64,000 bases of DNA, taken from positions 76,900 to 140,899 of the forward strand of contig JAEWTV010000128.1 of assembly GCA_023397675.1 (NCBI GenBank), written 5' to 3'. The position numbers were made by a program, and so were the translations under genes. Under the pieces are notes generated by a model that saw only the letters and a program-made list of their open reading frames with translations, did no database searches and was not told the DNA's origin. Positions 883 through 63,402 of the stretch are shown here, in pieces. Numbering within the stretch: position 1 is the first letter of the stretch; each line of letters starts with the position of its first letter. This DNA is from Bacillota bacterium (GTDB lineage: Bacteria; Bacillota; Clostridia; Acetivibrionales; JANLFN01).

Positions 883-1091
883 AAACGTGTGATATGCTTC
901 GCATTACGGCGTTAAACTTCATGCCTGCGGTGCTCATGTATAAAAATACACTACGCTCCTCGGCAATCGTTTTCCTTGTACTGCTTGCATCTGACACGTT
1001 TAAAGAAAAGGTTATATACTTTGCATTTTGGTATCAGATGAAAAGCGTGATAAACTTCGTCTTCCTTGTAATACTCGTTTCTGACGCTTTT
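883..1091. other. Two paralogous hairpin elements, long 883-1001 and short 1041-1091, of unknown function
   Basis: The 15-nt arms AAACGTGTGATATGC/GCATCTGACACGTTT and AAAAGCGTGATAAAC/GTTTCTGACGCTTTT each pair at 13/15 positions. Both have the same two mismatch positions, and compensatory substitutions separate the two copies. They share the loop core CGTYTTCCTTGTA. Confidence 0.45.
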
Positions 1092-1134
1092 CTATTACAA
1101 TGGGAATTATACTAAAAAAGTAAAAGGTATTTGC

Positions 1135-1893
1135 GTGAATATAGATATTTTAGAAAATGAGCGAATAGACGATTTGCAATATAAGGGTTTAAGACTGATT
1201 CAGAAGGTTGATGGTTTCTGCTTTGGGGTGGATGCTGTGCTTCTGGCTAATTATGCCGACATAAAGCCTGGTGATCAGGTGATTGATCTTGGGACGGGTA
1301 CAGGAATAATACCTGTTCTCCTTGCAGGAAAGACTGAAGCAGGAAAGATTATAGGACTTGAGATTCAGCAAGACATGGCGCAAATGGCGGCAAGAAGCGT
1401 AAAGCTTAATGATTTACAGCAGCGGGTGCAAATAGTAAACGGTGATATTAAAAACAGTGTTGAAATATTCGGGGCATCTAAATTTGATGCAGTACTTACA
1501 AACCCGCCTTATATGCAAACAAACGGCGGACTTGTAAATCCTTCCGATACAAAAGCAATATCAAGACATGAAATACTCTGTACACTCGAGGATATTATAA
1601 GAGCAAGCAGTAAGCTTCTAAAACCCGGTGGAAGGTTCCATATGATACACAGACCTGAAAGGCTTGTTGATATAATTTTTCTTATGAGAACCTTTGGAAT
1701 TGAACCTAAATATATAAGGCTTGTACACCCTTCGCCATATAAAAGGGCAAACCTTCTTTTAATAAAAGGCACAAGGGGAGGAAATCCACAGTTAAAAATG
1801 GATCCGCCTTTGTATGTTTATGATGAAAATGGAAACTATTCAGATGAAATAAATAAAATATATAGCCGGCAGGCCATTGATAAAGGATGCTAG
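1135..1893 (+). CDS. SAM-dependent methyltransferase, YabB / tRNA1(Val) m6A37 methyltransferase-like
   Basis: SAM-binding motif VIDLGTGTGI and N6-adenine MTase motif TNPPYM. It occupies the position of B. subtilis yabB upstream of rsmI. GTG start. Confidence 0.85.
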   Translation: MNIDILENERIDDLQYKGLRLIQKVDGFCFGVDAVLLANYADIKPGDQVIDLGTGTGIIPVLLAGKTEAGKIIGLEIQQDMAQMAARSVKLNDLQQRVQIVNGDIKNSVEIFGASKFDAVLTNPPYMQTNGGLVNPSDTKAISRHEILCTLEDIIRASSKLLKPGGRFHMIHRPERLVDIIFLMRTFGIEPKYIRLVHPSPYKRANLLLIKGTRGGNPQLKMDPPLYVYDENGNYSDEINKIYSRQAIDKGC

Positions 1894-2824
1894 CGATGGA
1901 AGTGGAATTTTGAAAAAAGAAGAAAAAAATCTGCAAGAAAATATTAAACAAAAACAGAATCCAGAGGATATTAAAAGCCCGGGAACCTTGTATTTGGTAG
2001 CAACACCTATTGGAAACCTCGGTGATATTACGCTTAGAGCAATTGAAACGCTTAAAATTGTTGACGTAATTGCTGCAGAAGATACAAGGCAAACTCTTAA
2101 GCTGCTTAACCACTTTGAGATAAAGAAGCCCCTTGTCAGTTATTATGAGCATAATAAGAACATCAAGGGCGGATATATCTTAAAAATGCTTTCAGAAGGC
2201 AAAAATGTTGCCCTTGTATCTGATGCAGGTTCGCCTGGTATTTCAGACCCCGGGGAAGATATGGTTAAACTGGCTGTTGAAAATGGAATTAATGTTACCA
2301 TGGTACCTGGAGCGGTTGCTGCTGTCACAGGTCTGGTCCTTTCAGGGCTGGCAACAGGTCGGTTTGTATTTGAAGGTTTTTTGCCTATGAATAAACGGGC
2401 CAGGAAGGAAAGAATCAATTTTCTTGTGGACGAAGTACGTACAATTATTCTGTATGAGGCTCCACACAAGCTCATTTATACTTTAAAAGAACTGTTACAG
2501 ATACTTGGTGATAGAAATATAGCACTTGCCCGTGAACTTACAAAGCGCTATGAGCAGATAATAAGATGCAAGCTTTTAGAAGCCGTCGAAATGTATACGA
2601 ATGAGCCACCAAGGGGCGAATATGTCATTATAATCGAGGGTATCCCTGAACAATCACTCATTTTGGAAAAGAGACATGAATGGGATGAGATGAGTACTGA
2701 GGAACACGTACAACTTTATATTAACCAGGGAATGGACAAAAAAAGCGCAATTAAACAGGCTGCTCAAGACAGGGGAGTAAGCAGAAGGGATGTTTATAAC
2801 AGCCTTCTTGATAAAAACGAATAA
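1877..2824 (+). CDS. rsmI: 16S rRNA (cytidine1402-2'-O)-methyltransferase RsmI
   Basis: Tetrapyrrole-methylase-fold N-terminus GTLYLVATPIGNLGDITLRAIETLK..AEDTR. The exact start is uncertain (36-aa Lys/Glu-rich leader; 17-nt overlap with the upstream gene). Confidence 0.9.
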   Translation: MIKDASDGSGILKKEEKNLQENIKQKQNPEDIKSPGTLYLVATPIGNLGDITLRAIETLKIVDVIAAEDTRQTLKLLNHFEIKKPLVSYYEHNKNIKGGYILKMLSEGKNVALVSDAGSPGISDPGEDMVKLAVENGINVTMVPGAVAAVTGLVLSGLATGRFVFEGFLPMNKRARKERINFLVDEVRTIILYEAPHKLIYTLKELLQILGDRNIALARELTKRYEQIIRCKLLEAVEMYTNEPPRGEYVIIIEGIPEQSLILEKRHEWDEMSTEEHVQLYINQGMDKKSAIKQAAQDRGVSRRDVYNSLLDKNE

Positions 2825-2835
2825 AAAAGGACAGC

Positions 2836-2863
2836 AAAAAGGGGGATTAAAATCCCCCTTTTT
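2836..2863. terminator. Bidirectional intrinsic terminator between convergent rsmI and abrB
   Basis: AAAAA-GGGGGATT/AATCCCCC-TTTTT, with an A-run on one side and a T-run on the other. Confidence 0.7.
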
Positions 2864-2878
2864 AATGATTGTTTCCAA

Positions 2879-3118
2879 TTATTTTTTTAGTTCTCTCATA
2901 CACTCAGGACATATATTTTTTCCCTTATAAACATTTACGTCCTTAGCGTTGCCACAGAAGATGCAAGCTGGCTCATACTTTTTGAGAATGATTGTATTAC
3001 CATCAACGTAGATTTCCAAAGCATCCTTTTCAGCGATATCAAGTGTACGTCTAAGTTCTATTGGCAGTACAACTCTGCCAAGTTCATCAACCTTTCTTAC
3101 AATTCCAGTAGATTTCAT
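2879..3118 (-). CDS. abrB: Transition-state regulator AbrB (SpoVT/AbrB swapped-hairpin domain) with a CxxC..CxxC C-terminal tail
   Basis: MKSTGIVRKVDELGRVVLPIELRRTLDI.. is the canonical AbrB N-terminus. GGGAGG lies 7 nt upstream of the ATG at 3118. The track ORF (TTG 3193) is over-extended. Confidence 0.9.
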   Translation of the reverse strand: MKSTGIVRKVDELGRVVLPIELRRTLDIAEKDALEIYVDGNTIILKKYEPACIFCGNAKDVNVYKGKNICPECMRELKK

Positions 3119-3143
3119 AATAAACCTCCCTACATTTACAGTA

Positions 3144-3150
3144 TTCGACA
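3144..3150 (-). promoter_or_regulatory. Candidate Spo0A box (TGTCGAA on the abrB strand) in the abrB 5' leader
   Basis: Exact 0A-box heptamer TGTCGAA (plus strand TTCGACA) about 20 nt upstream of the abrB RBS. Confidence 0.45.
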
Positions 3151-3283
3151 TTTCTTTTTTTAATATAGTACCATATATGCCAATAAACGTCAACGATAAA
3201 ATGAAAGTTTTTTCAAAAAAATGTTATGGTAATTTATAGAAAACTCATTTTGGCAAGCTTTGTAAATATTGAAATATCGGCCT

Positions 3284-3290
3284 TTCGACA
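3284..3290 (-). promoter_or_regulatory. Candidate Spo0A box
   Basis: Exact TGTCGAA on the minus strand in the abrB/spmA divergent intergenic region. Confidence 0.35.
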
Positions 3291-3384
3291 AACACGAATT
3301 TTAGGCAAAAATTTACATGGTACTCTCGGTACCGCTAGAATCAGGCCTTTGAGGGTATTTTTGCATCCAAATAGAAGAAATAAA

Positions 3385-3401
3385 TTCGACACATATCGAC
3401 A
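3385..3401 (-). promoter_or_regulatory. Tandem candidate Spo0A boxes (TGTCGAA + TGTCGAT)
   Basis: Plus strand reads TTCGACAcatATCGACA, i.e. two 0A-like heptamers 10 bp apart, just upstream of a TATAAT at 3417-3422. Confidence 0.35.
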
Positions 3402-3502
3402 AGCACTTTGGTAGTGTATAATTTCCAATTTTTAATTATTGAATAGCCTAAAGAATGTCCTCATATATATTATTAAAAATTCTTTTAAGGATTATTATCA
3501 AA

Positions 3503-15015: not shown

Positions 15016-15912
15016 ATGAAAATGATCTTTGTTTTTTTAGATGGGTTTGGGCTTGGTGAAAATGATAAATCCAAAAACCCTGTTTATGCTGCAAATGCAG
15101 AAAATATCCGGTATATTTTAAGTAATTTCAGAATGATACCAACTGATTCTACACTTGGTGTGCCAGGTCTTCCACAAAGCGCTACGGGACAGACTGCCAT
15201 ATTTACAGGGGTAAATGCGTCCAAAGCTCTGGGCAGGCATATGCATGGGCAGCCTACTATTACTCTCAAGCAAATACTTAATGAAAACAATCTCTTCCTT
15301 GAATTGGCTAAAAGAGGTTTGAAATTTACAAACTTCAATGTCTATAGAAAGGAATATCTTGATAAAATGAACGATCCCCGTGAAAAACGTTACAGGCCTT
15401 CGGTAACATCCGTTATGACCTTGTCTTCAGGTATAAGCTTTAGAATGGCGGAAGACTATGAACAGGGAAAAGGTATTTATCATGATATTACAGGAAAAGT
15501 CCTTAAGGAATATGGGTATGATATAGATGTTATTACGCCTGTTATGGCGGCGCAAAGGCTTTACCGCGAAAGCAGGAACTATGATTTTACCTTGTTTGAA
15601 CATTTTATGCCAGACATAATCGGACATCGCATGAATATGGAAGAGGCAAAAGATGAGATAATGCTTTTGGATGAGTTTCTAGGCGAACTGGTAAGGCTGT
15701 CAGACCTTGATAATGATATTATATTTATCACTAGTGACCATGGGAATATTGAAGACATTAGTGTAAAAACACATACCTTTAACAAGGTTCCAACTTGTAT
15801 TATAACGAATTTGTTCTGCGCAGCTTCGGTTACGATAGAATCCCTTACGGATATTACACCATCTGTATTGAGGCTTTTTGATGGGTGCGATAAGGGACAA
15901 AATCAGGTTTGA
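15016..15912 (+). CDS. Alkaline-phosphatase superfamily metalloenzyme (iPGM/phosphopentomutase-like)
   Basis: N-terminal FLDGFGLG metal-site motif and C-terminal ITSDHGN motif. Confidence 0.7.
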   Translation: MKMIFVFLDGFGLGENDKSKNPVYAANAENIRYILSNFRMIPTDSTLGVPGLPQSATGQTAIFTGVNASKALGRHMHGQPTITLKQILNENNLFLELAKRGLKFTNFNVYRKEYLDKMNDPREKRYRPSVTSVMTLSSGISFRMAEDYEQGKGIYHDITGKVLKEYGYDIDVITPVMAAQRLYRESRNYDFTLFEHFMPDIIGHRMNMEEAKDEIMLLDEFLGELVRLSDLDNDIIFITSDHGNIEDISVKTHTFNKVPTCIITNLFCAASVTIESLTDITPSVLRLFDGCDKGQNQV

Positions 15913-15932: not shown

Positions 15933-18422
15933 ATGGGTAAGTTTTTAGAACTTCTGGCACCAGCAGGAGATAAGGAAGCGTTTCTTGCAGCAATTGAGAA
16001 TGGTGCGGATGCAGTATATCTTGGCGGTAAAATTTTAAACGCAAGACAGTTTGCAGGCAATTTCGGCTCAGAAGAGCTGTCCGAAGCAATCAGGTATGCT
16101 CATGTAAGGGATGTGAATGTTTATCTTACAATGAATACCCTCGTATCGGATGAAGAGTTGCCGGAAGCCTTGAACTTTGCGAAAGAGGCATATCTGCTAG
16201 GAATAGATGCAGTTATTGTTCAGGATTTAGGGTTTGCCGGCTTACTCCATAAAGAACTTCCAGATTTACATCTTCATGCTAGTACACAGATGACGGTATA
16301 TAATCTTGAAGGTGTAAGAATGCTGGAAAGCCTGGGCTTTAAGAGGGTTGTTCTAGCCAGGGAATTATCGGTGGACGAAATACGGCACATATGTAAAAGC
16401 ACTGATTTGGAGGTAGAGGTCTTCATACATGGTGCTTTGTGCATAAGCTACTCTGGACAGTGCCTGATGAGCAGTATAATAGGAGGAAGGAGCGGTAACA
16501 GGGGAAAGTGTGCCCAGCCCTGCCGTCTCCCTTACTCACTTCTTAAAGACAACAAAACAATCAATCCGGTTGAAAATAGTAAAACTGAAACGGCATACCT
16601 GTTAAGCCCAAAGGATATATGTACCGTAGGGTTCATTGACAAGATAGCCCAGACAGGAGTCAAATCGCTGAAAATAGAAGGCAGGATGAAAAATCCGGAA
16701 TATGTTGCTACTGTAGTTAGTACCTATCGGAAGTACTTAAATGGAGTAGATAACGGAACGAAGTTAACTGTTGATGATAATGATAAAAGGAAACTGACAC
16801 AGATTTTCAATAGGGGTGGCTTTTCAAAGGGCTACTTTATAGGGAAGACCGGCAGGGACATTATGTGCTGGGAAAAGCCTAAAAACTGGGGTCTATATGC
16901 AGGCAATGTACTTTCCTACACAAAAGAAACAGGACTTTTAAAAATAAGTCTTAAGGAAAACCTTTCAATCGGTGATGGTATTGAAATATGGAATGGGGAG
17001 AATGAAAGTCCGGGAACTGTTATAAGCTGGATGTCATCGGGAGAGAAAAGCATAAATTCAGCCCAACCCGGAACCGTTGTAACCGTAGGAAAAGTCAAAG
17101 GAAGAATATCAAAGGGTGACAAGGTATACAAAACTTCTGACAAGCTTTTGATTTCAGAAGCATTGGAGTCATTCAGAAAACCGAAAAGAAAAACAGTAAT
17201 ACAAGGAATTTTTGAACTTAAAGCCGATAAACCGGCAGTACTTGCTGTAATTGACAGACAGGGGAATTCAGTTCGGGTAGAGGGTTCTGCTGTTCCAGAA
17301 GCAGCTGTTAACAAACCGCTTAGCAGCCAAAGAGTTATTGAGCAGCTACAAAAGACAGGAGCTACACCCTTTGAGTTTGAAAAGATTGATGTACATTCCG
17401 ACAATAACCTTACTATACCCTTGAGCGAAATAAATGATATAAGAAGAAGAGCACTTGATGAACTGGAACTTATAAGAGGGAATAATAACCGGGAATTACC
17501 GTCTGGTTTAACTATTCCTGTATCGAGGCAAAAGCATGATTCAAATAATGTTATACAGCCCAAAATATCAGCTCTTTTTATGACTCCAAGACCTGAACTT
17601 GATTTTAATTCTGTTGAAGCTGACAGGATATACCTGCCTTTTGAGTACTATTCGGGTATGGGCTGGGAACGCTTAAGTGAAATATGCAAAAGCAATAAAG
17701 CACAGGTTTTTCTGTGGCTTCCCTCCATTACAAGAGGTAATTATGATAATTTGATTATATCTAGGCTCAACAAACTTGCAGAATCGGGAATTGATGGAGT
17801 AATGGTAGGAAACCCCGGAAGTATTAATTATTTTAAAGACTTTAAAAAACTTGCTATAACCGGGGATTACTCGTTAAATGTCTTTAATAGTCTTACACTT
17901 GAAGAACTAAAATATATGGGACTTGCAGGGGCTACACTTTCATTGGAACTAACACTTGGACAGGTTAGGGCAATGACAGCACCTTTGGATTTTGAAAAGG
18001 AGATTGTTGTATACGGAAGAATTCCTTTAATGACCTCCGAGTATTGCCCAGTTGGAAGTGTTACAGGAGGCTTTACGTCAGAAACCAAGTGTAATATTCC
18101 TTGCAAATCAGGCAATTATAGGCTTAAAGACCGTAAAGGTATAGAATTCCCGGTTCTTTGTGATAACATTGACTGCAGAAGTACTATACTAAATTCAACT
18201 TCGCTCTTTTTGGCAGATAACATTAAGAAGTCTGATTTTTCAGGTATAGATTATATAAGGCTTAACATATTTGATGAAACTCCTGAAAGGGTTCAAAAGC
18301 TGCTAAAGCTTCACAGACAGGCCCTTGAGGATTTTCAGGCTGTAAAGGCGAATTTTGCAGATGTGGTTGAAGAAATAAGAAGCGAGGGCTTTACAAGGGG
18401 TCATTACTATAGAGGGGTTTGA
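15933..18422 (+). CDS. Peptidase U32 family protein, long form (PrtC/collagenase-like) with a C-terminal DUF3656-like region
   Basis: ELLAPAG..AIENGADAVYLGG start, U32 signature E.FIHGALCISYSGQC and CAQPCR. GGAGGA lies upstream of ATG 15933. Confidence 0.85.
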   Translation: MGKFLELLAPAGDKEAFLAAIENGADAVYLGGKILNARQFAGNFGSEELSEAIRYAHVRDVNVYLTMNTLVSDEELPEALNFAKEAYLLGIDAVIVQDLGFAGLLHKELPDLHLHASTQMTVYNLEGVRMLESLGFKRVVLARELSVDEIRHICKSTDLEVEVFIHGALCISYSGQCLMSSIIGGRSGNRGKCAQPCRLPYSLLKDNKTINPVENSKTETAYLLSPKDICTVGFIDKIAQTGVKSLKIEGRMKNPEYVATVVSTYRKYLNGVDNGTKLTVDDNDKRKLTQIFNRGGFSKGYFIGKTGRDIMCWEKPKNWGLYAGNVLSYTKETGLLKISLKENLSIGDGIEIWNGENESPGTVISWMSSGEKSINSAQPGTVVTVGKVKGRISKGDKVYKTSDKLLISEALESFRKPKRKTVIQGIFELKADKPAVLAVIDRQGNSVRVEGSAVPEAAVNKPLSSQRVIEQLQKTGATPFEFEKIDVHSDNNLTIPLSEINDIRRRALDELELIRGNNNRELPSGLTIPVSRQKHDSNNVIQPKISALFMTPRPELDFNSVEADRIYLPFEYYSGMGWERLSEICKSNKAQVFLWLPSITRGNYDNLIISRLNKLAESGIDGVMVGNPGSINYFKDFKKLAITGDYSLNVFNSLTLEELKYMGLAGATLSLELTLGQVRAMTAPLDFEKEIVVYGRIPLMTSEYCPVGSVTGGFTSETKCNIPCKSGNYRLKDRKGIEFPVLCDNIDCRSTILNSTSLFLADNIKKSDFSGIDYIRLNIFDETPERVQKLLKLHRQALEDFQAVKANFADVVEEIRSEGFTRGHYYRGV

Positions 18423-29872: not shown

Positions 29873-30769
29873 CTAAACCGACATGTCATCGGCTTCCTGT
29901 ACCGACTCATTCACTTCCACAAACGGCACCTTGTAATGATTTTTTCTGCGGCGTGCGATGCCTTCCTCTCGTTGAGCATATTCCGCAAAAACCTTTCCGA
30001 GATCCAATACATCATTCATTTCATAATAGCCCGGGTTTCTGTAGATGAAACGAACCGCCTTAACTGCACCAAGTGCGAAAGCTCTGCGCGAGAAGGATTC
30101 GTGTGATATTTCTATCTTATCATCTTCGCCGATAATCATGACTTCATGTTTTCCAACAACTCCTCCAGCTCTAATAGCTGTAATTGGAACACTGATTTTT
30201 TCCTCATTAATACCTGCATGGATAAGCCCTTTTTTAATTTCTCCGGCTATCTTTAATGCGGTACCTGAAGGGGAATCCTTCTTATATTTGTGATGTATCT
30301 CGGTTATTTGAAAATCATAATTGTTAAGAATGCATGATGCAAGATTTGACAGCAGCATAAGTACATTAACCCCTAAAGTTATATTAGGTGCGTATACTAT
30401 ACCGTTATGGTATTTCCTTGTAAGTACGAAAAGCTTTTTCCTTGACATATCCGAAAATCCAGTTGTTCCTATTACAAGGTTAACCTTCATATGCGAAAAA
30501 ACCCTGGCATTTCTTAGAGTTGCGGATGGACTTGTAAAATCGATTGCAACGTCCGGTTTGCTTCTAAAAACGATCTGTTCAATGTTATCCGAGCTTTCAA
30601 CAGGAATATCCATATCGGCACAGCCCAATACCTGACCCAGATCCTTTCCTTGCTTGCTGCTTCCTGGACTGCATACCGCAGCAACTATTTTTATATCCTC
30701 AATAGACTGTAATACTTTGGCGATCTCAATGCCAGTCTTACCAAGCCCTACAAGACATACTTTGATCAT
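29873..30769 (-). CDS. 4-hydroxy-tetrahydrodipicolinate reductase (DapB) family protein with a ~40-aa C-terminal extension
   Basis: Rossmann N-terminus MIKVCLVGLGKTG and DapB signature EIHHKYKKDSPSGTA. The DapB-like end ..YEMNDVLDLG is followed by an extra charged tail. Confidence 0.8.
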   Translation of the reverse strand: MIKVCLVGLGKTGIEIAKVLQSIEDIKIVAAVCSPGSSKQGKDLGQVLGCADMDIPVESSDNIEQIVFRSKPDVAIDFTSPSATLRNARVFSHMKVNLVIGTTGFSDMSRKKLFVLTRKYHNGIVYAPNITLGVNVLMLLSNLASCILNNYDFQITEIHHKYKKDSPSGTALKIAGEIKKGLIHAGINEEKISVPITAIRAGGVVGKHEVMIIGEDDKIEISHESFSRRAFALGAVKAVRFIYRNPGYYEMNDVLDLGKVFAEYAQREEGIARRRKNHYKVPFVEVNESVQEADDMSV

Positions 30770-30864: not shown

Positions 30865-31008
30865 CATACCTATCACCTTCTCTTCCAACGCTTACGGGAT
30901 TAGCTGACGGATTCGGATCGAAAGAGTTTAACCCTACCTGACCAACAACAGTCAGGATTCACCCCAATTACCTGGTTCTCCCGCTCTTAAACAAGATTAA
31001 GCGCGCTT
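30865..31008 (-). promoter_or_regulatory. ydaO/yuaA-class c-di-AMP riboswitch aptamer
   Basis: Minus-strand motifs GCUUAAUC (31001-30994), GAGCGGGAGAACCA (30985-30972), GGGGUGAAUCC (30964-30954) and CCGAAUCCGUCAGCUAAUCCCGUAAGCG (30915-30888). These match the conserved blocks of the ydaO motif as I recall them. Confidence 0.8.
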
Positions 31009-31319
31009 ATAATATTATGTTTTTAATCCATATAATAATATATTCATAGACAAGTTGAATAAATTACAATATGTAAAAATATTATACACATGTTATGTCA
31101 TTTACTCAAATATTGCCCTATGAAACTATTACACAGCATTTAATACTATAGACGAAGATATTTATCTAAAGTTTCATATGAATAAACTTTTTCTTTTGGA
31201 TATATATTCTCGAATGATTTCCTTCTAAAACTTGAAGTTGGTGTTCTTAAATAGTAAAATATGAAATATACTTTTATAGAATTGGGGTCTTAGGCTTTTT
31301 AGCCGGTGAGGAGATATAT

Positions 31320-58457: not shown

Positions 58458-59162
58458 TTGAACTACATTGATATTATTGTGATAGCGGTTATTATTGGTT
58501 TTGCCTTTTTTGGCATGAAAACAGGGTTCTTGCTTTCGGCATATAGAATCGCATCCTTTTTCCTGTCAATCTTTCTTGCAATTAAGCTATATCCTATATT
58601 TTCAAAACTCATGCAAAAAACATTCATTTTTACCAGTATAAGAAATTCGATCTATGGAAGTCTTGTTAAACAATCTCCAGAGGCAGCAGGGCAGGTAAAA
58701 CAGGTTGCTGCCGACACTGTAATCAGTAATATGAATATGCCTGGCTTCCTCAAGCCTGTGGTAAGAAATACGGTAGTGGATAAAATTGATCCGACAAAGC
58801 TTATTGATACATCAAAGGTTATGGGTACGGTAAGTGATGCATTGGCAAAAATAGTTATGGATGTATTAAGCCTTATTCTCCTTTACATACTTATTAGAGT
58901 GGCTCTCGTATTCTTCAAATTTGTAATAAAGGGCCTTACAAAGCTTCCGATTCTAAAGCAGGTAAACAATCTTGGCGGATTCATTCTTGGCGCAGTAGAA
59001 GGCGTTCTTGCCCTCTATATCGCATTTGCTTTAATTACTTTGTTCCATACCTCCGGTGGAATGGCCGGTTTATTTACAAGCATTGACAACTCCCTTATTG
59101 CCAGGACTTTTTATGAGCATAACTTTATTGTAAATTGGATGTTCCCGAGCAAGGGAGCGTAG
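58458..59162 (+). CDS. cvpA: CvpA family membrane protein
   Basis: N-terminus NYIDIIVIAVIIGFAFFGMKTGF and a four-TM organisation typical of CvpA. TTG start after GGGGG. Confidence 0.7.
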   Translation: MNYIDIIVIAVIIGFAFFGMKTGFLLSAYRIASFFLSIFLAIKLYPIFSKLMQKTFIFTSIRNSIYGSLVKQSPEAAGQVKQVAADTVISNMNMPGFLKPVVRNTVVDKIDPTKLIDTSKVMGTVSDALAKIVMDVLSLILLYILIRVALVFFKFVIKGLTKLPILKQVNNLGGFILGAVEGVLALYIAFALITLFHTSGGMAGLFTSIDNSLIARTFYEHNFIVNWMFPSKGA

Positions 59163-59164
59163 TA

Positions 59165-59242
59165 AGTTTACAGTTGGCAATGTACAATGTACAGTTAACT
59201 GCTTATTTAAGTGTACAGTTGATAATGTACAAATTACAGTTA
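59165..59242 (+). repeat. Array A: two tandem 33-bp modules (A1 59165-59197, A2 59210-59242) with TGTACAGTT boxes, plus orientation
   Basis: ACAGTT starts at 59170, 59191, 59215 and 59236 (spacing 21/24/21). The module reads AGTKTACAGTTRRYAATGTACAAWKTACAGTTA. Confidence 0.85.
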
Positions 59243-59390
59243 CAAAACTGCAAAAAGAGTTAATTGACAAAACCTAATACTCTATAATTAATAGTTCAAG
59301 GAATATTCCAAAATCTGTTTTAATGTTAAACTTTGAGTTTCCCTCAAACTATAACACTAACTATGTTTTTAACTATAATTGTACAGTGTA

Positions 59391-59511
59391 TTTTTGCACT
59401 GTATACTGCTCTTTGCTTTTAACTGTAAACCATAAACTGTACACTATCTTTTGCACTGTGCACTGTCTTTGCTTTTAACTGTACATTGTAAATTGTAAAC
59501 TGTACACTATT
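59391..59511 (+). repeat. Array B: tandem ~58/62-bp duplication carrying the same module in inverted orientation
   Basis: B1 is 59391-59448 and B2 is 59449-59511 (TTTTGCACTGT..CTTTGCTTTTAACTGTA..AAACTGTACACTAT). B2 59476-59508 matches module D1 at 31/33 positions. Confidence 0.85.
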
Positions 59512-59632
59512 ATGTATGTTAATGAAAACAATCAATGAGTCTTTTTAAATATTAATGAATTCTGCCTTTTGCTGCCATGTTATAGACAATTAATGTGTTA
59601 GCTAGTAAAATTAAAATACAAACACTAAATTT

Positions 59633-59653
59633 ATAGCCGGATAATCCGGCTAT
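59633..59653 (+). other. Hairpin in the ilvD leader (possible weak terminator/attenuator)
   Basis: ATAGCCGGA/TCCGGCTAT 9-bp stem with a 3-nt loop, followed by TATTATA rather than a clean U-tract. Confidence 0.3.
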
Positions 59654-59705
59654 TATTATACCTGTAAGATTAAGTCAAAAGTTTTTATAGAAGGTGGTAA
59701 ATGCC

Positions 59706-61364
59706 ATGCGAAGTGATACAGTAAAAAAAGGAATTGAACGTGCACCGCATAGATCGCTCTTTAAAGCAATGGGATATACGGATGAAGAAATCAGCAGGCC
59801 TCTCATTGGCGTAGTCAACTCAAAAAGTGAGATAATTCCGGGGCACATAAATCTGGATAAAATAGCTGAAGCGGTTAAAGCCGGAATCAGGATGGCCGGG
59901 GGGACTCCAATAGAATTTGGAGCTATAGGAGTGTGTGATGGAATTGCAATGGGTCATACCGGTATGAAATACTCCCTTGCAACCAGAGAATTGATTGCTG
60001 ATTCCTGTGAAGCGATGGGAATGGCCCACAGCTTTGATGGGATGGTTTTTATACCCAACTGTGACAAGATAGTTCCCGGTATGATAATGGCAGCCGCAAG
60101 AATAAATGTACCCTCTGTTGTAATAAGCGGGGGACCGATGCTTTCAGTGAACCGTAATGGAAAACAGCTTGATTTTAACAGTATGATGGAAGCTGTTGGC
60201 GCTGTTAAAGCGGGGAAAATGACTGAAGAGGAAATGTGTGACCTTGAAAACCATGCCTGCCCAGGCTGCGGTTCATGCTCAGGTATGTTTACGGCAAATT
60301 CCATGAACTGCTTGACAGAGGTCTTGGGAATGGGGCTTACGGGCAATGGTACAATTCCGGCGGTTTATGCAGAAAGGATACGTCTTGCTAAAACAGCAGG
60401 TATGAAGGTTATGGAATTGGTGGAAAAAAACATCAGACCTTCAGATATCCTTACACAAAAGGCTTTCCAAAATGCATTGACTGTTGATATGGCTCTTGGA
60501 TGCTCTACAAATTCGGTACTTCACTTGCCCGCAATTGCCAATGAGGTTGGAATAGAAATTAACCTTGATATTATAAATGAAATTAGTGCTAGGGTTCCAA
60601 ACCTATGCAAGCTCTCACCGGCAGGACAACATCATATACAGGATTTATATACTGCAGGTGGTGTTCAGGCCGTGATGAAGGAGCTGTCCAAAAAGAATCT
60701 TCTTCACCTTGACCTGATAACAGCTACAGGTAAAAAAGTTGGTGAAAACATAGAGAATGCAAAGGTTCTTGATAATGAAGTCATAAGGGATATAGACAAT
60801 CCTTACAGCACAACCGGGGGGATAGCAGTCCTCCGTGGGAATATAGCTCCAGATGGGGCTGTTGTAAAACGTTCTGCCGTAGCTAAGGAAATGCTGGCTC
60901 ATAAAGGGCCTGCAAGGGTTTTTGATTCAGAAGATGACGCCATTGAAGCAATTTATAACGGAAAAATTATTAAAGGCGACGTTATAGTAATACGTTACGA
61001 AGGTCCAAAAGGTGGTCCTGGAATGAGAGAAATGCTTGGACCCACTTCGGCTATAGCTGGGATGGGATTGGATAAGGATGTTGCCTTAATTACAGATGGA
61101 AGGTTTTCTGGGGCATCGAGAGGGGCATCAATAGGGCATGTTTCACCTGAAGCTATGGAAGGCGGTCCTGTTGCATTTATTAAAGAAGGAGATATTGTAA
61201 GTATAGATATACCAGCCGGCAAGCTTGATATAGAAGTAAGCAGTGAAGAAATTGAAAGAAGAATGAAGGAATGGAAAGCTCCGCAGCCTAAAATAACATG
61301 GGGATACCTTGGAAGGTATGCAAGACAGGTATCATCCGCAAGCACAGGAGCGGTATTAAAATAG
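59706..61364 (+). CDS. ilvD: Dihydroxy-acid dehydratase
   Basis: [19 protein letters not shown]-terminus, CDKIVPGM and the Fe-S ligand region. AAGGTGG lies 8 nt upstream of ATG 59706. Confidence 0.95.
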
Positions 61365-61367
61365 TTA

Positions 61368-61470
61368 ATAGTGTACAATTTACAGATTACGGTTAAAAGC
61401 TAAATTACAAGTTTTCTGTTAGAGCAAGGTATTGTACATTATAAAAGATGTTATACATTTTGCAGTTAAA
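61368..61470 (+). repeat. Array C: degenerate plus-orientation TGTACA/ACAGTT-like boxes directly after the ilvD stop
   Basis: AGTGTACAATTTACAGATTA, ATTACAAGTT, ATTGTACATTA, TGCAGTTAAA. It resembles array A only loosely. Confidence 0.5.
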
Positions 61471-61642
61471 TTTAAGATTAGCGTTTGTTAAAGCGATTTT
61501 GAAAGTTAAAGTTAATAATAAACATTATTGATATATGTAAAATATCCACTCAATTGGTTGTTTAATAAAAATAAATACTCAATTAACTATAAGTTTTGAG
61601 ATATTAACTAAAATTAAGTATTAATATTTTTTTATACGCAGT

Positions 61643-61713
61643 TAACTGTACCTTGTACATTATCAATTGTACACTTACTATAACTGTACATTGTACATTG
61701 TTAACTGTACACT
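61643..61713 (-). repeat. Array D: two tandem 33-bp modules (D2 61643-61675, D1 61681-61713) in minus orientation, ending 7 nt before the ilvB SD
   Basis: The reverse complement of D1 matches A1 at 30/33 positions, including an exact 20-mer CAATGTACAATGTACAGTTA. The reverse complement of D2 matches A2 at 30/33. Confidence 0.85.
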
Positions 61714-61734
61714 CGAAGAAGGGGTGGTGTGGTT

Positions 61735-63402
61735 ATGAAGTTGAATGGTTCTGAGATTTTAATGGAATGTCTGCTGGAACAAGGAGTTGATACGGTCTTT
61801 GGGTTCCCAGGCGGTGCTGTGCTGAATATATATGATGCTTTATATAAGTATAAGGATAAGATAAGACATATCTTAACTTCACATGAACAGGGTGCGGCGC
61901 ATGCTGCAGACGGTTATGCCAGAGCTACTGGAAAGGTTGGCGTTTGTATAGCCACATCAGGCCCGGGTGCAACAAACCTTGTTACTGGAATAGCAACTGC
62001 TTACATGGATTCAATTCCGATGGTTGCCATAACAGGTCAGGTAGCTACAAGCCTGCTGGGAAAGGATTCTTTCCAGGAAGTTGATATTACAGGCATAACA
62101 ATGCCTATTACAAAGCATAATTATATTGTAAAAAATGTTGAAAAGCTTGCGGATACAGTAAGGCAGGCGTTTATAATAGCAGCTGAAGGAAGACCCGGCC
62201 CTGTGCTTATAGATGTCTGCAAGGATGTAAGTGCAGCTTTCACCGAGTATACTCCTAAAAAGGCAGAAAAGCCCCCGGTACTTGAAATAGGTGTAAGTGA
62301 TTATGAAATAGAGAAAGCAGCTGAGACCATTAATGGGTCTAAAAAGCCTTTCATACTTTCTGGTGGTGGGGTTGCTATCTCAGGTGCACACGAAGAGGTG
62401 CTTATGCTTGCTGAAAAGGCAGGTATTCCAGTCTCGACAACTCTTATGGGACTTGGATCATTCCCTGGTAACCATGAGCTGTTTACGGGCCTAATGGGTA
62501 TGCACGGGACTAAAACTTCCAATCTTGCAGTTTCAGAAGCTGATCTGTTTATCGCAATAGGAGCCCGGTTCAGTGACAGGGTCATAAGTAATGTAAACAA
62601 GTTTGCGCCTAAGGCGGAAATTATGCACATTGATATAGATGCTGCTGAAATTGGTAAGAATATTAAAGTAAATCATCCTCTTGTAGGAAATATTAAGATG
62701 ATTCTTCAAGAACTAATTGCCAAGGTTGAAAAGAATAGCAGGGCTGAGTGGGTGGAGAAGGCAAATGATTGGAAGCGTGCCTATCCCTTGAAATCAGAAT
62801 GGAATGGCGAACTTAAGCCTCAGTTTATAATCGAGAAAATTTATGAAGTGACCCGCGGAGACGCCCTCATAACAACTGAAGTTGGACAGAATCAGCTTTG
62901 GGCTGCACAGTTCTATAAATATACAAAACCCAGGCAGTATATTTCTTCAGGCGGCCTCGGAACAATGGGTTTTGGTCTTGGAGCATGCATAGGTGCACAA
63001 ATAGGCAGACCTGATAAAAAAGTAATAAATGTTGCCGGCGACGGGAGTTTCAGAATGAACTTGACAGAACTTGCAACAGCTGTAGAATATAAAGTGCCGG
63101 TAATAATTGCTATTTTAAACAACAGGGTTTTGGGAATGGTAAGACAGTGGCAGGAATTATTCTATGCAGGAAGGTATTCGGCGACTACTATTGATAGGGG
63201 TACAGACTTTGTAGCTCTCGCAAAGGCTTTTGGGGCTGAAGGTATAAATGTTTCAAAACCTGAGGAAGTAGCTCCTGCGTTGGAAAAGGCATTAGCCTCT
63301 GTTGATGTTCCGGTAGTTATAAATTTTGAAATAGGTATGAACGAAAAGGTATTTCCGATTGTACCTCCCGGCTCACCAATATATGAAATTATTGAAGGGT
63401 AA
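61735..63402 (+). CDS. ilvB: Acetolactate synthase large (catalytic) subunit, biosynthetic type
   Basis: ThDP-enzyme N-terminus GSEILMECLLEQGVDTVFGFPGG and ThDP motif GDGSF.MN..EL.T. GGGGTGG lies 7 nt upstream of ATG 61735. Confidence 0.93.
   Translation: MKLNGSEILMECLLEQGVDTVFGFPGGAVLNIYDALYKYKDKIRHILTSHEQGAAHAADGYARATGKVGVCIATSGPGATNLVTGIATAYMDSIPMVAITGQVATSLLGKDSFQEVDITGITMPITKHNYIVKNVEKLADTVRQAFIIAAEGRPGPVLIDVCKDVSAAFTEYTPKKAEKPPVLEIGVSDYEIEKAAETINGSKKPFILSGGGVAISGAHEEVLMLAEKAGIPVSTTLMGLGSFPGNHELFTGLMGMHGTKTSNLAVSEADLFIAIGARFSDRVISNVNKFAPKAEIMHIDIDAAEIGKNIKVNHPLVGNIKMILQELIAKVEKNSRAEWVEKANDWKRAYPLKSEWNGELKPQFIIEKIYEVTRGDALITTEVGQNQLWAAQFYKYTKPRQYISSGGLGTMGFGLGACIGAQIGRPDKKVINVAGDGSFRMNLTELATAVEYKVPVIIAILNNRVLGMVRQWQELFYAGRYSATTIDRGTDFVALAKAFGAEGINVSKPEEVAPALEKALASVDVPVVINFEIGMNEKVFPIVPPGSPIYEIIEG

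Follow-up and report, generated by a model that had tools for sequence, protein, structure and literature searches.

Imperfect heptamer arrays flanking ilvD in a Clostridia genome belong to a widespread class of intergenic repeats

A 64,000-nucleotide stretch of a Bacillota genome of the class Clostridia (GenBank assembly GCA_023397675.1, contig JAEWTV010000128.1, positions 76,900 to 140,899; the whole stretch is referred to here as the window) carries mirrored arrays of short boxes in the two spacers that flank ilvD, one between cvpA and ilvD and the other between ilvD and ilvB. The boxes are best explained, with a probability of roughly 0.65, as imperfect tandem heptamers within two inverted, hairpin-forming intergenic elements of about 350 bp that belong to a known class of repeat, are probably transcribed as stem-loops and play no part specific to the regulation of ilv genes. 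A preliminary description, made from the window alone, had taken the arrays for a candidate undescribed regulatory or recombination architecture; the analysis removes this tempting false lead, in that the boxes are not a new branched-chain amino acid (BCAA) regulatory or recombination system. What the locus offers instead is a well-resolved comparative case, with three sister species, several strains and short-spacer outgroups, for a neglected class of intergenic heptamer repeats that was first described in cyanobacteria, Beggiatoaceae and Geobacter. Such arrays also interrupt short-read assembly, and in genome scans they can be mistaken for operator, LytTR and promoter motifs.

The repeat unit

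The hexamer TGTACA occurs at 36 sites in the window, compared with 15.6 ± 4.1 in shuffled sequence (0 of 100 shuffles reach 36), and 15 of these sites lie in the two spacers flanking ilvD (59181-59506 and 61372-61711). In a sliding autocorrelation of the window no short period other than 7 is enriched; of seven period-7 stretches at a threshold of 19/28, five fall in the same two spacers. Tandem Repeats Finder likewise reports period 7 and counts 2.1-3.6 copies of a perfect core for the window, compared with 4.6-10.4 copies for the sister species. The arrays (A1, A2, B1, and B2 in the cvpA-ilvD spacer; C1, D2, and D1 in the ilvD-ilvB spacer; Table 1) are all intergenic, and A1 and C1 begin 0-2 nt from stop codons. 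Each consists of imperfect TKTACAR or ACAGTTN units, four to five of which make up a 33-bp module; read in the ACAGTT orientation, the module runs TGTACAG, TTGATAA, TGTACAA, TGTACAG, and TTA...

The exact pattern ACAGTT-N15-ACAGTT is found four times in the 64 kb, in A1 (59170), A2 (59215), B2 (59477, minus strand), and D1 (61682, minus strand), and D2 differs from it by one mismatch. B1 is one heptamer short, with an inner spacing of 14 nt against 21 in B2, and the A1-A2 spacing of 45 differs from the D2-D1 spacing of 38 by 7. Because the repeat unit is the heptamer, the 33-bp module and the 21-bp phasing (3 x 7), both of which the preliminary description had correctly observed and had treated as the unit, are by-products.

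Two other interpretations of the heptamers were rejected. Provision of stop codons in all three frames would fit TTGACAG, AATTGAG, and TAACTGA, and fails for TGTACAA and TTTACAA. A σ70 promoter reading of the four-heptamer module (TTTACA-N17-TACAGT) is taken as a by-product of 3 x 7 + 2; it is weakened by the consistent ending of the arrays in TACAGT rather than in a better -10 hexamer and by the occurrence of the same arrays in Bacteroidales, whose promoters differ.

Two inverted elements with hairpin-forming arms

Both spacers contain inward-facing inverted arrays around an AT-rich core, and the resulting elements of 350 and 353 bp lie in opposite orientation on either side of ilvD. The mirrored arrangement that had been described previously is borne out by the sequence: the arrays bracket ilvD as reported, each spacer holds plus-oriented boxes, an AT-rich core, and minus-oriented boxes, and A mirrors D with 80-91% reverse complementarity. 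The ends of the elements match in inverted sense, A1A2 resembling the reverse complement of D1D2 (including about 30 nt past A2) and B2 that of C1. The inverted repeats include A1 with D1 (33 nt, 91%), A1 with B2 (34 nt, 88%), B2 with C1 (44 nt, 80%), 59160-59206 with 61634-61680 (47 nt, 87%), and 59184-59242 with 61643-61701 (59 nt, 80%). Local alignment of A with the reverse complement of D scores 87, against 48 for A:B and 28 for C:D, and global alignment of one element with the other scores 199 in reverse complement and 142 directly. The cores are no more alike than shuffled sequences (local score 17-21 against a shuffle mean of 22).

Both spacers are predicted to fold, as single strands, into long hairpins with the arrays as outer stems; for the A:B element (folded over 59155-59530) the energy is -105.8 kcal/mol (z = -6.75). 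Complementarity of the arms is 50 and 45 within variants, compared with 14-24 when arms are combined across variants.

Turnover at orthologous ilv loci

By its IlvD homologues the organism belongs with Acetivibrionales/Hungateiclostridiaceae-like Clostridia. Species X (contigs L026-L032 and L036) has ilvD sequences that are 99.2-99.8% identical in nucleotides to one another and 89% identical to that of the window (72% at third codon positions), and species Y (L034 and L035) has an ilvD 87% identical to that of the window; the outgroups are L033 (88% amino-acid identity) and, both at 86%, Anaerobacterium chartisolvens (L038) and L039. Genes cvpA, ilvD, and ilvB have the same order and orientation in 14 of 14 contigs (13 from public assemblies and the window's own, from three species); as this evidence consists of assemblies, it could miss a minority inverted orientation within a population.

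In the three species the ilvD-ilvB spacer has a common layout, in which an AT-rich core separates a plus array at the stop codon from a minus array that ends 3-8 nt ahead of the ribosome-binding site. The heptamers themselves differ by species, being TGTACAR in the window, GAATTGA and TCTCAAT-TCTCCAT in species X, and, in species Y, GTTGACA-GATGACA arranged as 41-47-nt higher-order repeats opposite TTAACTGTCAACTGTCC. At least three heptamer families are found at the same two spacers across the sister species; orthologous ilv spacers do not conserve the box sequence, which has turned over completely between sister species. In these species the arrays at the A and D positions belong to different heptamer families and do not form an inverted pair.

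The ilvD-ilvB spacer measures only 55 nt in L033 and 31 nt in A. chartisolvens and L039, and no period-7 arrays were found in 21 kb of the A. chartisolvens and L039 loci. The short outgroup spacers indicate that ilvD-ilvB was ancestrally a tight operon and that the spacers of 300-390 nt are derived. The 31-nt spacer, CAATTGACGAGGAACAGTT, looks like a plausible seed of the species Y heptamers. L033 has heptamer arrays elsewhere, after rplK and before rplJ (15258-15305 and 16424-16473; ATTGACA/ATTGATA and TTAATTA), which indicates that array positions shift between genera.

Strains of species X differ in the ilvD-ilvB spacer by single-nucleotide polymorphisms and one 1-nt indel only. Three structural alleles of the cvpA-ilvD spacer exist in this species at an ilvD identity of at least 99.2%: L031 and L032 alone have a TGTACA hairpin element resembling that of the window, and the other strains have different heptamers and a GC-rich insertion. 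Orthologous elements of the window and L031 align in the arms only. Mismatches between the arms of these two are not compensated, and the independent sequences are too few for this comparison to support either side on compensatory change.

The GC-rich insertion, of about 190 nt, fills the slot of the TGTACA element (L030 9670-9725; also L026-L029 and L036). Five copies of its 54-nt core, TTTTTAGTCGGTGGAACCGACTTGGTTTTGATAGCCGTGGG, are found at 90-96% identity in an 8-kb stretch of a metagenome-assembled genome (MAG) from an unrelated member of the Bacillota, L024, where the copies listed are at 435-545, 1021-1071, 1580-1629, and 1976-2025. The insertion is a separate dispersed repeat family associated with heptamer arrays.

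Distribution in other genomes and orientation relative to genes

The exact four-heptamer pattern KTACARTTNNNAATKTACAANKTACAGTT was found at 23 loci among GTDB species representatives, where about 0.02 matches would be expected by chance according to our own estimate. These loci are in Bacteroidales, Lentimicrobiaceae, Prevotellaceae, Natroniella (seven loci in two species), Orenia, Halanaerobacter, Ignavibacteria, Victivallales, Saprospiraceae, a gammaproteobacterium, Clostridium aromativorans, and Bacillota MAGs. All 23 are heptamer arrays in intergenic DNA; the 8-kb regions around them hold 73 period-7 arrays of many heptamer families, compared with at most eight arrays for any other non-harmonic period, and Natroniella, L024, and L006 have many. 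A second, end-specific pattern was found at seven metagenome loci in unrelated contexts, such as downstream of lysS and beside tRNA genes. The arrays are not ilv-specific: the heptamer family is present at about 30 unrelated loci in distant phyla, where one heptamer vocabulary and one set of array ends (AGTGTACAG...ACAGTTAAAAG) recur.

Six mirrored pairs in other taxa (Natroniella, Orenia, a Bacteroidales MAG, and metagenomes) have predicted hairpin folds with z from -3.4 to -8.8. Compact versions are found in L044 (after lysS), L009 (Bacteroidales), and L014 (Natroniella). In L044 (7562-7652) the lysS stop codon is followed by a 33-nt plus array, a 17-nt loop, a 32-nt minus array, 5 nt, and the next ribosome-binding site, with an RNA fold z of -5.2.

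The relation of the arrays to gene boundaries was assessed in a census of 65 arrays with at least three phased ACA[AG]T motifs, using crude open reading frame (ORF) calls. Of these, about 26 follow a co-oriented stop codon by no more than 100 nt and read ACARTT on the sense strand, a rule to which there is one clear exception; about 12 precede a start codon by no more than 100 nt and read AAYTGT. This polarity is automatic in mirrored pairs and is not automatic in unpaired arrays, which argues for a constraint tied to transcription or RNA.

Larger arrangements of the same kind were also observed. L045 (Ga0123355_10153327) contains at about 1000-3490 an unbroken array of more than 700 nt composed of CACTGTA, CACTGTG, and CACTGCG heptamers, a 'megasatellite' of the same family. 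Natroniella acetigena (L012 4362-4816 and L016 1848-2024) has higher-order tandem units of about 126-140 nt, each of which comprises a terminator-like hairpin (AAAAAATCTAAGAGCGGATTTTTT), an GGGTTCGAAGAACCC hairpin, GGAGGG, and a TKTACAR heptamer array.

A probable control region of ilvD and the search for known regulators

The ilvD-proximal 165-190 nt or so upstream of the start codon are conserved in the sister species. This segment includes a promoter-like site followed by a hairpin (Table 1), both of which are kept in all sister species, L033, A. chartisolvens, and L039, and which form the only part of the cvpA-ilvD spacer conserved out to A. chartisolvens. Changes in the stem and loop of the hairpin are compensatory across relatives, and a conserved TTAATGAAT(T)CT motif is found about 45 nt upstream of the -35 hexamer. 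The promoter-like site and hairpin are probably the real control region of ilvD-ilvB in the lineage; the heptamer arrays lie upstream of them and are separate.

The absence of a T-box and of a CodY-like site, remarked on in the preliminary description, holds in both spacers. Neither a T-box nor any other Rfam family reached the gathering score in either spacer, and nothing beyond chance matches (E > 1) appeared when they and the L030 spacer were scanned by E-value. No CodY-like site with three or fewer mismatches was found in either spacer, and the window-wide count of such sites is not above chance. There is no room for a leader peptide, as the hairpin begins about 15 nt past the predicted start site. 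Resemblances to Fur, TnrA, Spo0A-box, and boxA sites, checked by eye, proved to be partial and unconserved matches. The Pfam lists for the 10 kb on either side show no recombinase or invertase gene, no transposase, and no LytTR domain, which was also not found in the 10 candidate ORFs scanned.

The sole result of the whole-window Rfam scan at the gathering score is a riboswitch located elsewhere: a full-length cyclic di-AMP (ydaO/yuaA) riboswitch at 30873-31013 on the minus strand (101.8 bits), upstream of the minus-strand ORF 29873-30769.

Origin and possible role of the elements

The arrays belong to the widespread class of intergenic heptamer repeats. At the ilv locus they would have grown in situ from short seeds in the ancestral operon spacer of 31-55 nt, with slippage adding 7 nt at a time and higher-order units of 40-60 nt being duplicated, and template switching or gene conversion may have kept the arms and neighbouring spacers alike (A with D, B2 with C1). 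The arrays run from a stop codon to a few nucleotides before the next ribosome-binding site in an orientation fixed to the mRNA, and are therefore probably transcribed; position and orientation point to stem-loops in 3' untranslated regions (3'-UTRs) or between cistrons. A long intercistronic or 3'-UTR stem-loop, the likeliest function if there is any, could protect or process the upstream cistron, and could bring the stop codon of ilvD and the ribosome-binding site of ilvB together across the 370-nt spacer. It is unlikely that the arrays are an operator for a BCAA regulator. Of the earlier suggestion that A:B and C:D act as RNA duplexes, the predicted hairpins and the orientation rule, which favours the RNA level, are retained; nothing connects them with BCAA control. 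The claim of an ilv-specific regulatory architecture has to be given up on two grounds that the preliminary description had itself named as refuting it, the boxes being found at about 30 unrelated loci and missing from the orthologous ilv spacers.

Several observations weigh against growth in situ of transcribed stem-loops. The C:D element (folded over 61355-61740) has a weak stem in its predicted fold (-81.2 kcal/mol, z = -2.5), and the whole ilvD-ilvB spacer of species X folds no better than shuffled sequences (z = -1.1). The A:B element sits upstream of the predicted ilvD promoter, so that its transcription would depend on read-through from cvpA. Arrays are found in 2 of about 55 spacers in the 71 kb of this genome that was read, a sample that does not give the genome-wide copy number, and the ORF calls behind the orientation census are crude. 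Growth in situ alone does not explain the vocabulary and array ends shared across phyla, nor the greater likeness of A to D than to B in its own spacer; both would follow from a mobile element or from a shared binding protein.

A mobile origin, in which two copies of about 350 bp of a non-autonomous element resembling miniature inverted-repeat transposable elements (MITEs) or REPINs were inserted in opposite orientation on either side of ilvD, is unlikely, though it has the most to be said for it structurally. The terminal inverted repeats (AGTGTACAGTT...AACTGTACACT) and the subterminal heptamers would then be transposase-binding sites. Both elements have terminal inverted repeats of the form AGT(T/G)TACA(G/A)TT...AACTGTACACT and end in 5'-TG...CA-3'; their lengths are similar (350 and 353 bp), and their ends match when inverted, over some 30 nt past A2 as well (199 against 142 directly). 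The element is polymorphic for presence within species X at 99.2% or higher ilvD identity, its slot is filled in other strains by another dispersed repeat (the one with five copies in 8 kb of L024), and Natroniella has many copies. Against this, the cores are not alike beyond the level of shuffles, and the window and L031 align in the arms only. No target-site duplication is found (the flanks are GTA|...|ATT for the A-B element, AAT|...|CGA for the C-D element, and AT|...|AG in L031), no transposase is seen within 10 kb on either side, and no further copy exists in the remaining 60 kb or so of the window. The presence of three heptamer families in one slot between stop codon and ribosome-binding site, together with the seed-like outgroup spacer, favours evolution in situ. 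The preliminary description had considered MITE-like copies of about 346 bp; this comes closest in structure, down to the match of the inverted ends, and is weakened by the unrelated cores and the missing target-site duplication.

The inverted heptamer hairpins could also be an intercistronic RNA structure that is selected across phyla and joins termination and initiation sites over spacers of 100-400 nt, an idea for which the odds are rather low. Such a hairpin could provide structure-mediated translational coupling or shunting, or an RNase III or stability checkpoint, and its arms would co-evolve, leaving the heptamer sequence free to change. Support comes from the three sister species, in which three heptamer families fill one stop-to-ribosome-binding-site geometry, and from the compact versions in L044, L009, and L014 and the orientation rule of about 26:1 for unpaired arrays. 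The recurring vocabulary and ends, the persistent geometry, the strand rule, and the closer likeness of A to D than to B keep a role in coupling or processing open. Co-variation of the arms under heptamer replacement and the stop/start orientation rule make a role at the RNA level testable.

A protein acting on the RNA might be involved instead. The arrays would be binding sites for an abundant single-strand-binding protein (of the S1, Csp, CsrA, or KH type) and would constitute a post-transcriptional network at gene boundaries; this we regard as quite improbable. It would be in keeping with the orientation fixed to the mRNA (about 26:1 after stop codons), with the reversed arrays that abut ribosome-binding sites (D1 in the window, L044, and L014), and with a heptamer vocabulary common across phyla, which a conserved protein would fit; the same proposal has been made for TAACTGA repeats (PMC4679880). 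Unrelated heptamers (GAATTGA and GATGACA) occupy the same position in sister species, so that there is no single target sequence, and paired arrays would be double-stranded.

A role at the level of DNA was also considered. If the arrays were topological insulators, either as sites for an architectural or nucleoid protein (IHF/HU-like, or gyrase as at BIMEs) or as cruciforms, the orientation of unpaired arrays relative to stop and start codons would not be predicted, and their sequence is not conserved between sister species. The REP/BIME elements are a known analogy. Inverted AT-rich arrays with a sub-phasing of 21 bp (two helical turns) would suit such a role, and binding of the IHF/HU type was proposed for paired heptanucleotides in Geobacter (PMC2700814). 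It is very improbable here.

A resemblance to LytTR-type (AgrA/ComE-like) operators deserves mention as an example of mimicry. The boxes can be read as 9-bp direct repeats, ACAGTTNNN, 12 bp apart, which we take to equal the AgrA box in motif and spacing; the exact ACAGTT-N15-ACAGTT pattern occurs four times in these spacers only, and A1 and A2 lie upstream of a TTGACA hexamer. The spacing of 21 bp is a by-product of 3 x 7, the position is plausible for A1 and A2 only (D1 and D2 face away from ilvB, and D1 abuts its ribosome-binding site), and identical arrays with a single ACAGTT are found in Bacteroidales and elsewhere. The comparison with sister species, which have unrelated heptamers or none, and the failure to find a LytTR protein in 10 ORFs or within 10 kb on either side largely refute the reading, which retains hardly any credibility. 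The same evidence, namely unconserved boxes, the wrong direction of D1 and D2, and no LytTR gene found, counts against the broader proposal that the arrays are operators for a regulator that binds direct repeats.

Site-specific inversion of the 2.4-kb ilvD segment between A and D, also considered previously, can be dismissed almost entirely: A and D match each other better than any other inverted pair does (47-78 nt at 82-91%) and a Logan contig breaks in B2, but all 14 contigs are collinear, sister species have no A/D inverted pair, no recombinase is encoded within 10 kb, and inversion would cut ilvB off from the ilvD promoter.

Genomic setting and coordinates

The gene order is cvpA (58458-59162), ilvD (59706-61364), and ilvB (61735-63402), followed by rpmG-secE-nusG and ribosomal protein genes. 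An ENA metagenome contig (ERZ27269055 k141_20375, 612 kb) and a Logan contig of the same strain are identical in sequence to the window. The Logan contig (L002) starts at window position 59475, i.e., its assembly broke inside array B2, which is consistent with interruption of short-read assembly by the repeats; heptamer arrays may for this reason be under-represented in MAGs.

Within the B region (59380-59510) each copy has a small hairpin, e.g., TACAGTG-TATTTTTG-CACTGTA, and then CTCTTTGCTTTTAAC, which bears a loose and probably coincidental resemblance to boxA/NusB-type sequences. A 51-aa Cys-rich ORF that runs through the repeats (59323-59478, plus strand) has no ribosome-binding site and is not conserved in L031 and L032, and was rejected as a gene.

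Table 1. Features of the two spacers flanking ilvD (window coordinates).
Feature	Position	Strand	Description
Whole cvpA-ilvD hairpin element	59163..59512		350 bp; termini AGTTTACAGTT...AACTGTACACT
A1 heptamer array	59165..59199	+	AGTTTACAG TTGGCAA TGTACAA TGTACAG TTAAC; starts 2 nt past cvpA TAG (59160-59162)
A2 heptamer array	59210..59244	+	Second heptamer array of the outer (5') arm
AT-rich core, cvpA-ilvD element	59245..59375		Unalignable to the ilvD-ilvB core or to the orthologous L031/L032 core
B region	59376..59512	-	Two-copy tandem, 57-63 nt per copy, each with small hairpin, CTTTGCTTTTAAC, and minus-oriented heptamer array; pairs with A1/A2
B1 heptamer array	59413-59447	-	Minus-oriented; 14-nt spacing
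B2 heptamer array	59476-59510	-	Minus-oriented
Putative ilvD promoter-like site and 5' hairpin	59583..59653	+	TAGACA-17-TAAAAT (59583-59611), then ATAGCCGG-ATAA-TCCGGCTAT (59633-59653); outside the repeat element
C1 heptamer array	61361..61400	+	Degenerate; begins on ilvD TAG (61362-61364), ends TTAAAAGC; like reverse complement of B2
AT-rich core, ilvD-ilvB element	61401..61642		
D2 heptamer array	61643..61675	-	Minus-oriented; like reverse complement of A2
D1 heptamer array	61681..61713	-	Minus-oriented; like reverse complement of A1 (91%); ends a few nt ahead of ilvB ribosome-binding site (~61717-61727), ilvB ATG at 61735

Comparison with known systems

The preliminary description could name no system to which the arrays correspond; intergenic heptamer repeats, including inverted pairs within an amino-acid operon, have in fact been described (PMC4679880; PMC2700814). 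The literature search returned no description of the TKTACAR family, of such repeats in Clostridia, or of the stop-to-ribosome-binding-site geometry.

Direct repeats of the heptamer TAACTGA, mixed with other heptamers, are known from Beggiatoaceae, cyanobacteria, and Bacteroidetes; most precede a start codon closely, and some follow a stop codon as the reverse complement (MacGregor, 2015; PMC4679880). Together with the cyanobacterial STRR and LSSR-7 repeats, which have several families per genome, they resemble the arrays of the window in being intergenic 7-nt tandems with a patchy distribution across phyla. In TAACTGA repeats, orientation is likewise tied to gene boundaries, and the unit is one base off the TAACTGT seen here. 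Their indels come in 7-nt steps, a pattern suggested by the array spacings in the window and not seen between the strains of species X. They differ in that almost all are direct (in BOGUAY, 169 direct sets and one indirect), in that they are often perfect, and in their overlap with the ribosome-binding site, whereas the arrays of the window are imperfect and form inverted pairs around a core of 130-240 nt. A preprint on Nostoc reports that heptamer repeats alter reporter expression modestly and offers no mechanism.

Eight pairs of sites, each site consisting of five tandem MTYCTGA heptamers, have been described from Geobacter metallireducens under the name 'class 3 global regulator binding sites' (Aklujkar et al., 2009; PMC2700814). 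The proB-proA spacer holds one of these pairs, which G. sulfurreducens lacks. The sites were interpreted, without tests, as targets of an unknown global regulator similar to IHF/HU (PMC2700814). Like the elements considered here, they are multicopy, inverted intergenic arrays of about five imperfect heptamers, with one pair inside an amino-acid operon at a place where a sister species has none; the heptamers (MTYCTGA compared with TKTACAR/ACAGTTN) and the phylum are different, and placement relative to stop codons and ribosome-binding sites was not analysed in that study.

REPINs and BIMEs of Proteobacteria (PMC3116915) share with the elements the combination of inverted short repeats and a spacer into a hairpin, an intergenic or intra-operon location, variation between strains, and a mosaic association with other motifs. 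A REP is, in contrast, a single palindromic unit of 20-35 nt mobilised by a RAYT (Y1 transposase), of which none was seen in the window, and REPIN copies are alike over their whole sequence. MITEs such as Correia, RUP, BOX, and ERIC are similar in size (about 100-400 bp), in their terminal inverted repeats, in forming a hairpin when transcribed, in lying between cistrons, and in presence/absence polymorphism; the elements flanking ilvD differ from them by the lack of a target-site duplication, of a common core, and of a visible partner transposase, and by replacement of the heptamer in situ. The operator of the LytTR regulators AgrA and ComE, ACAGTTNNN-N12-ACAGTTNNN, is matched exactly by A1, A2, B2, and D1, but here the match arises from the heptamer period, is wrongly placed and oriented, is unconserved, and is accompanied by no LytTR gene among those surveyed. 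The nearest precedents for the elements are the TAACTGA repeats, the cyanobacterial STRR, and the inverted heptanucleotide pairs of Geobacter.

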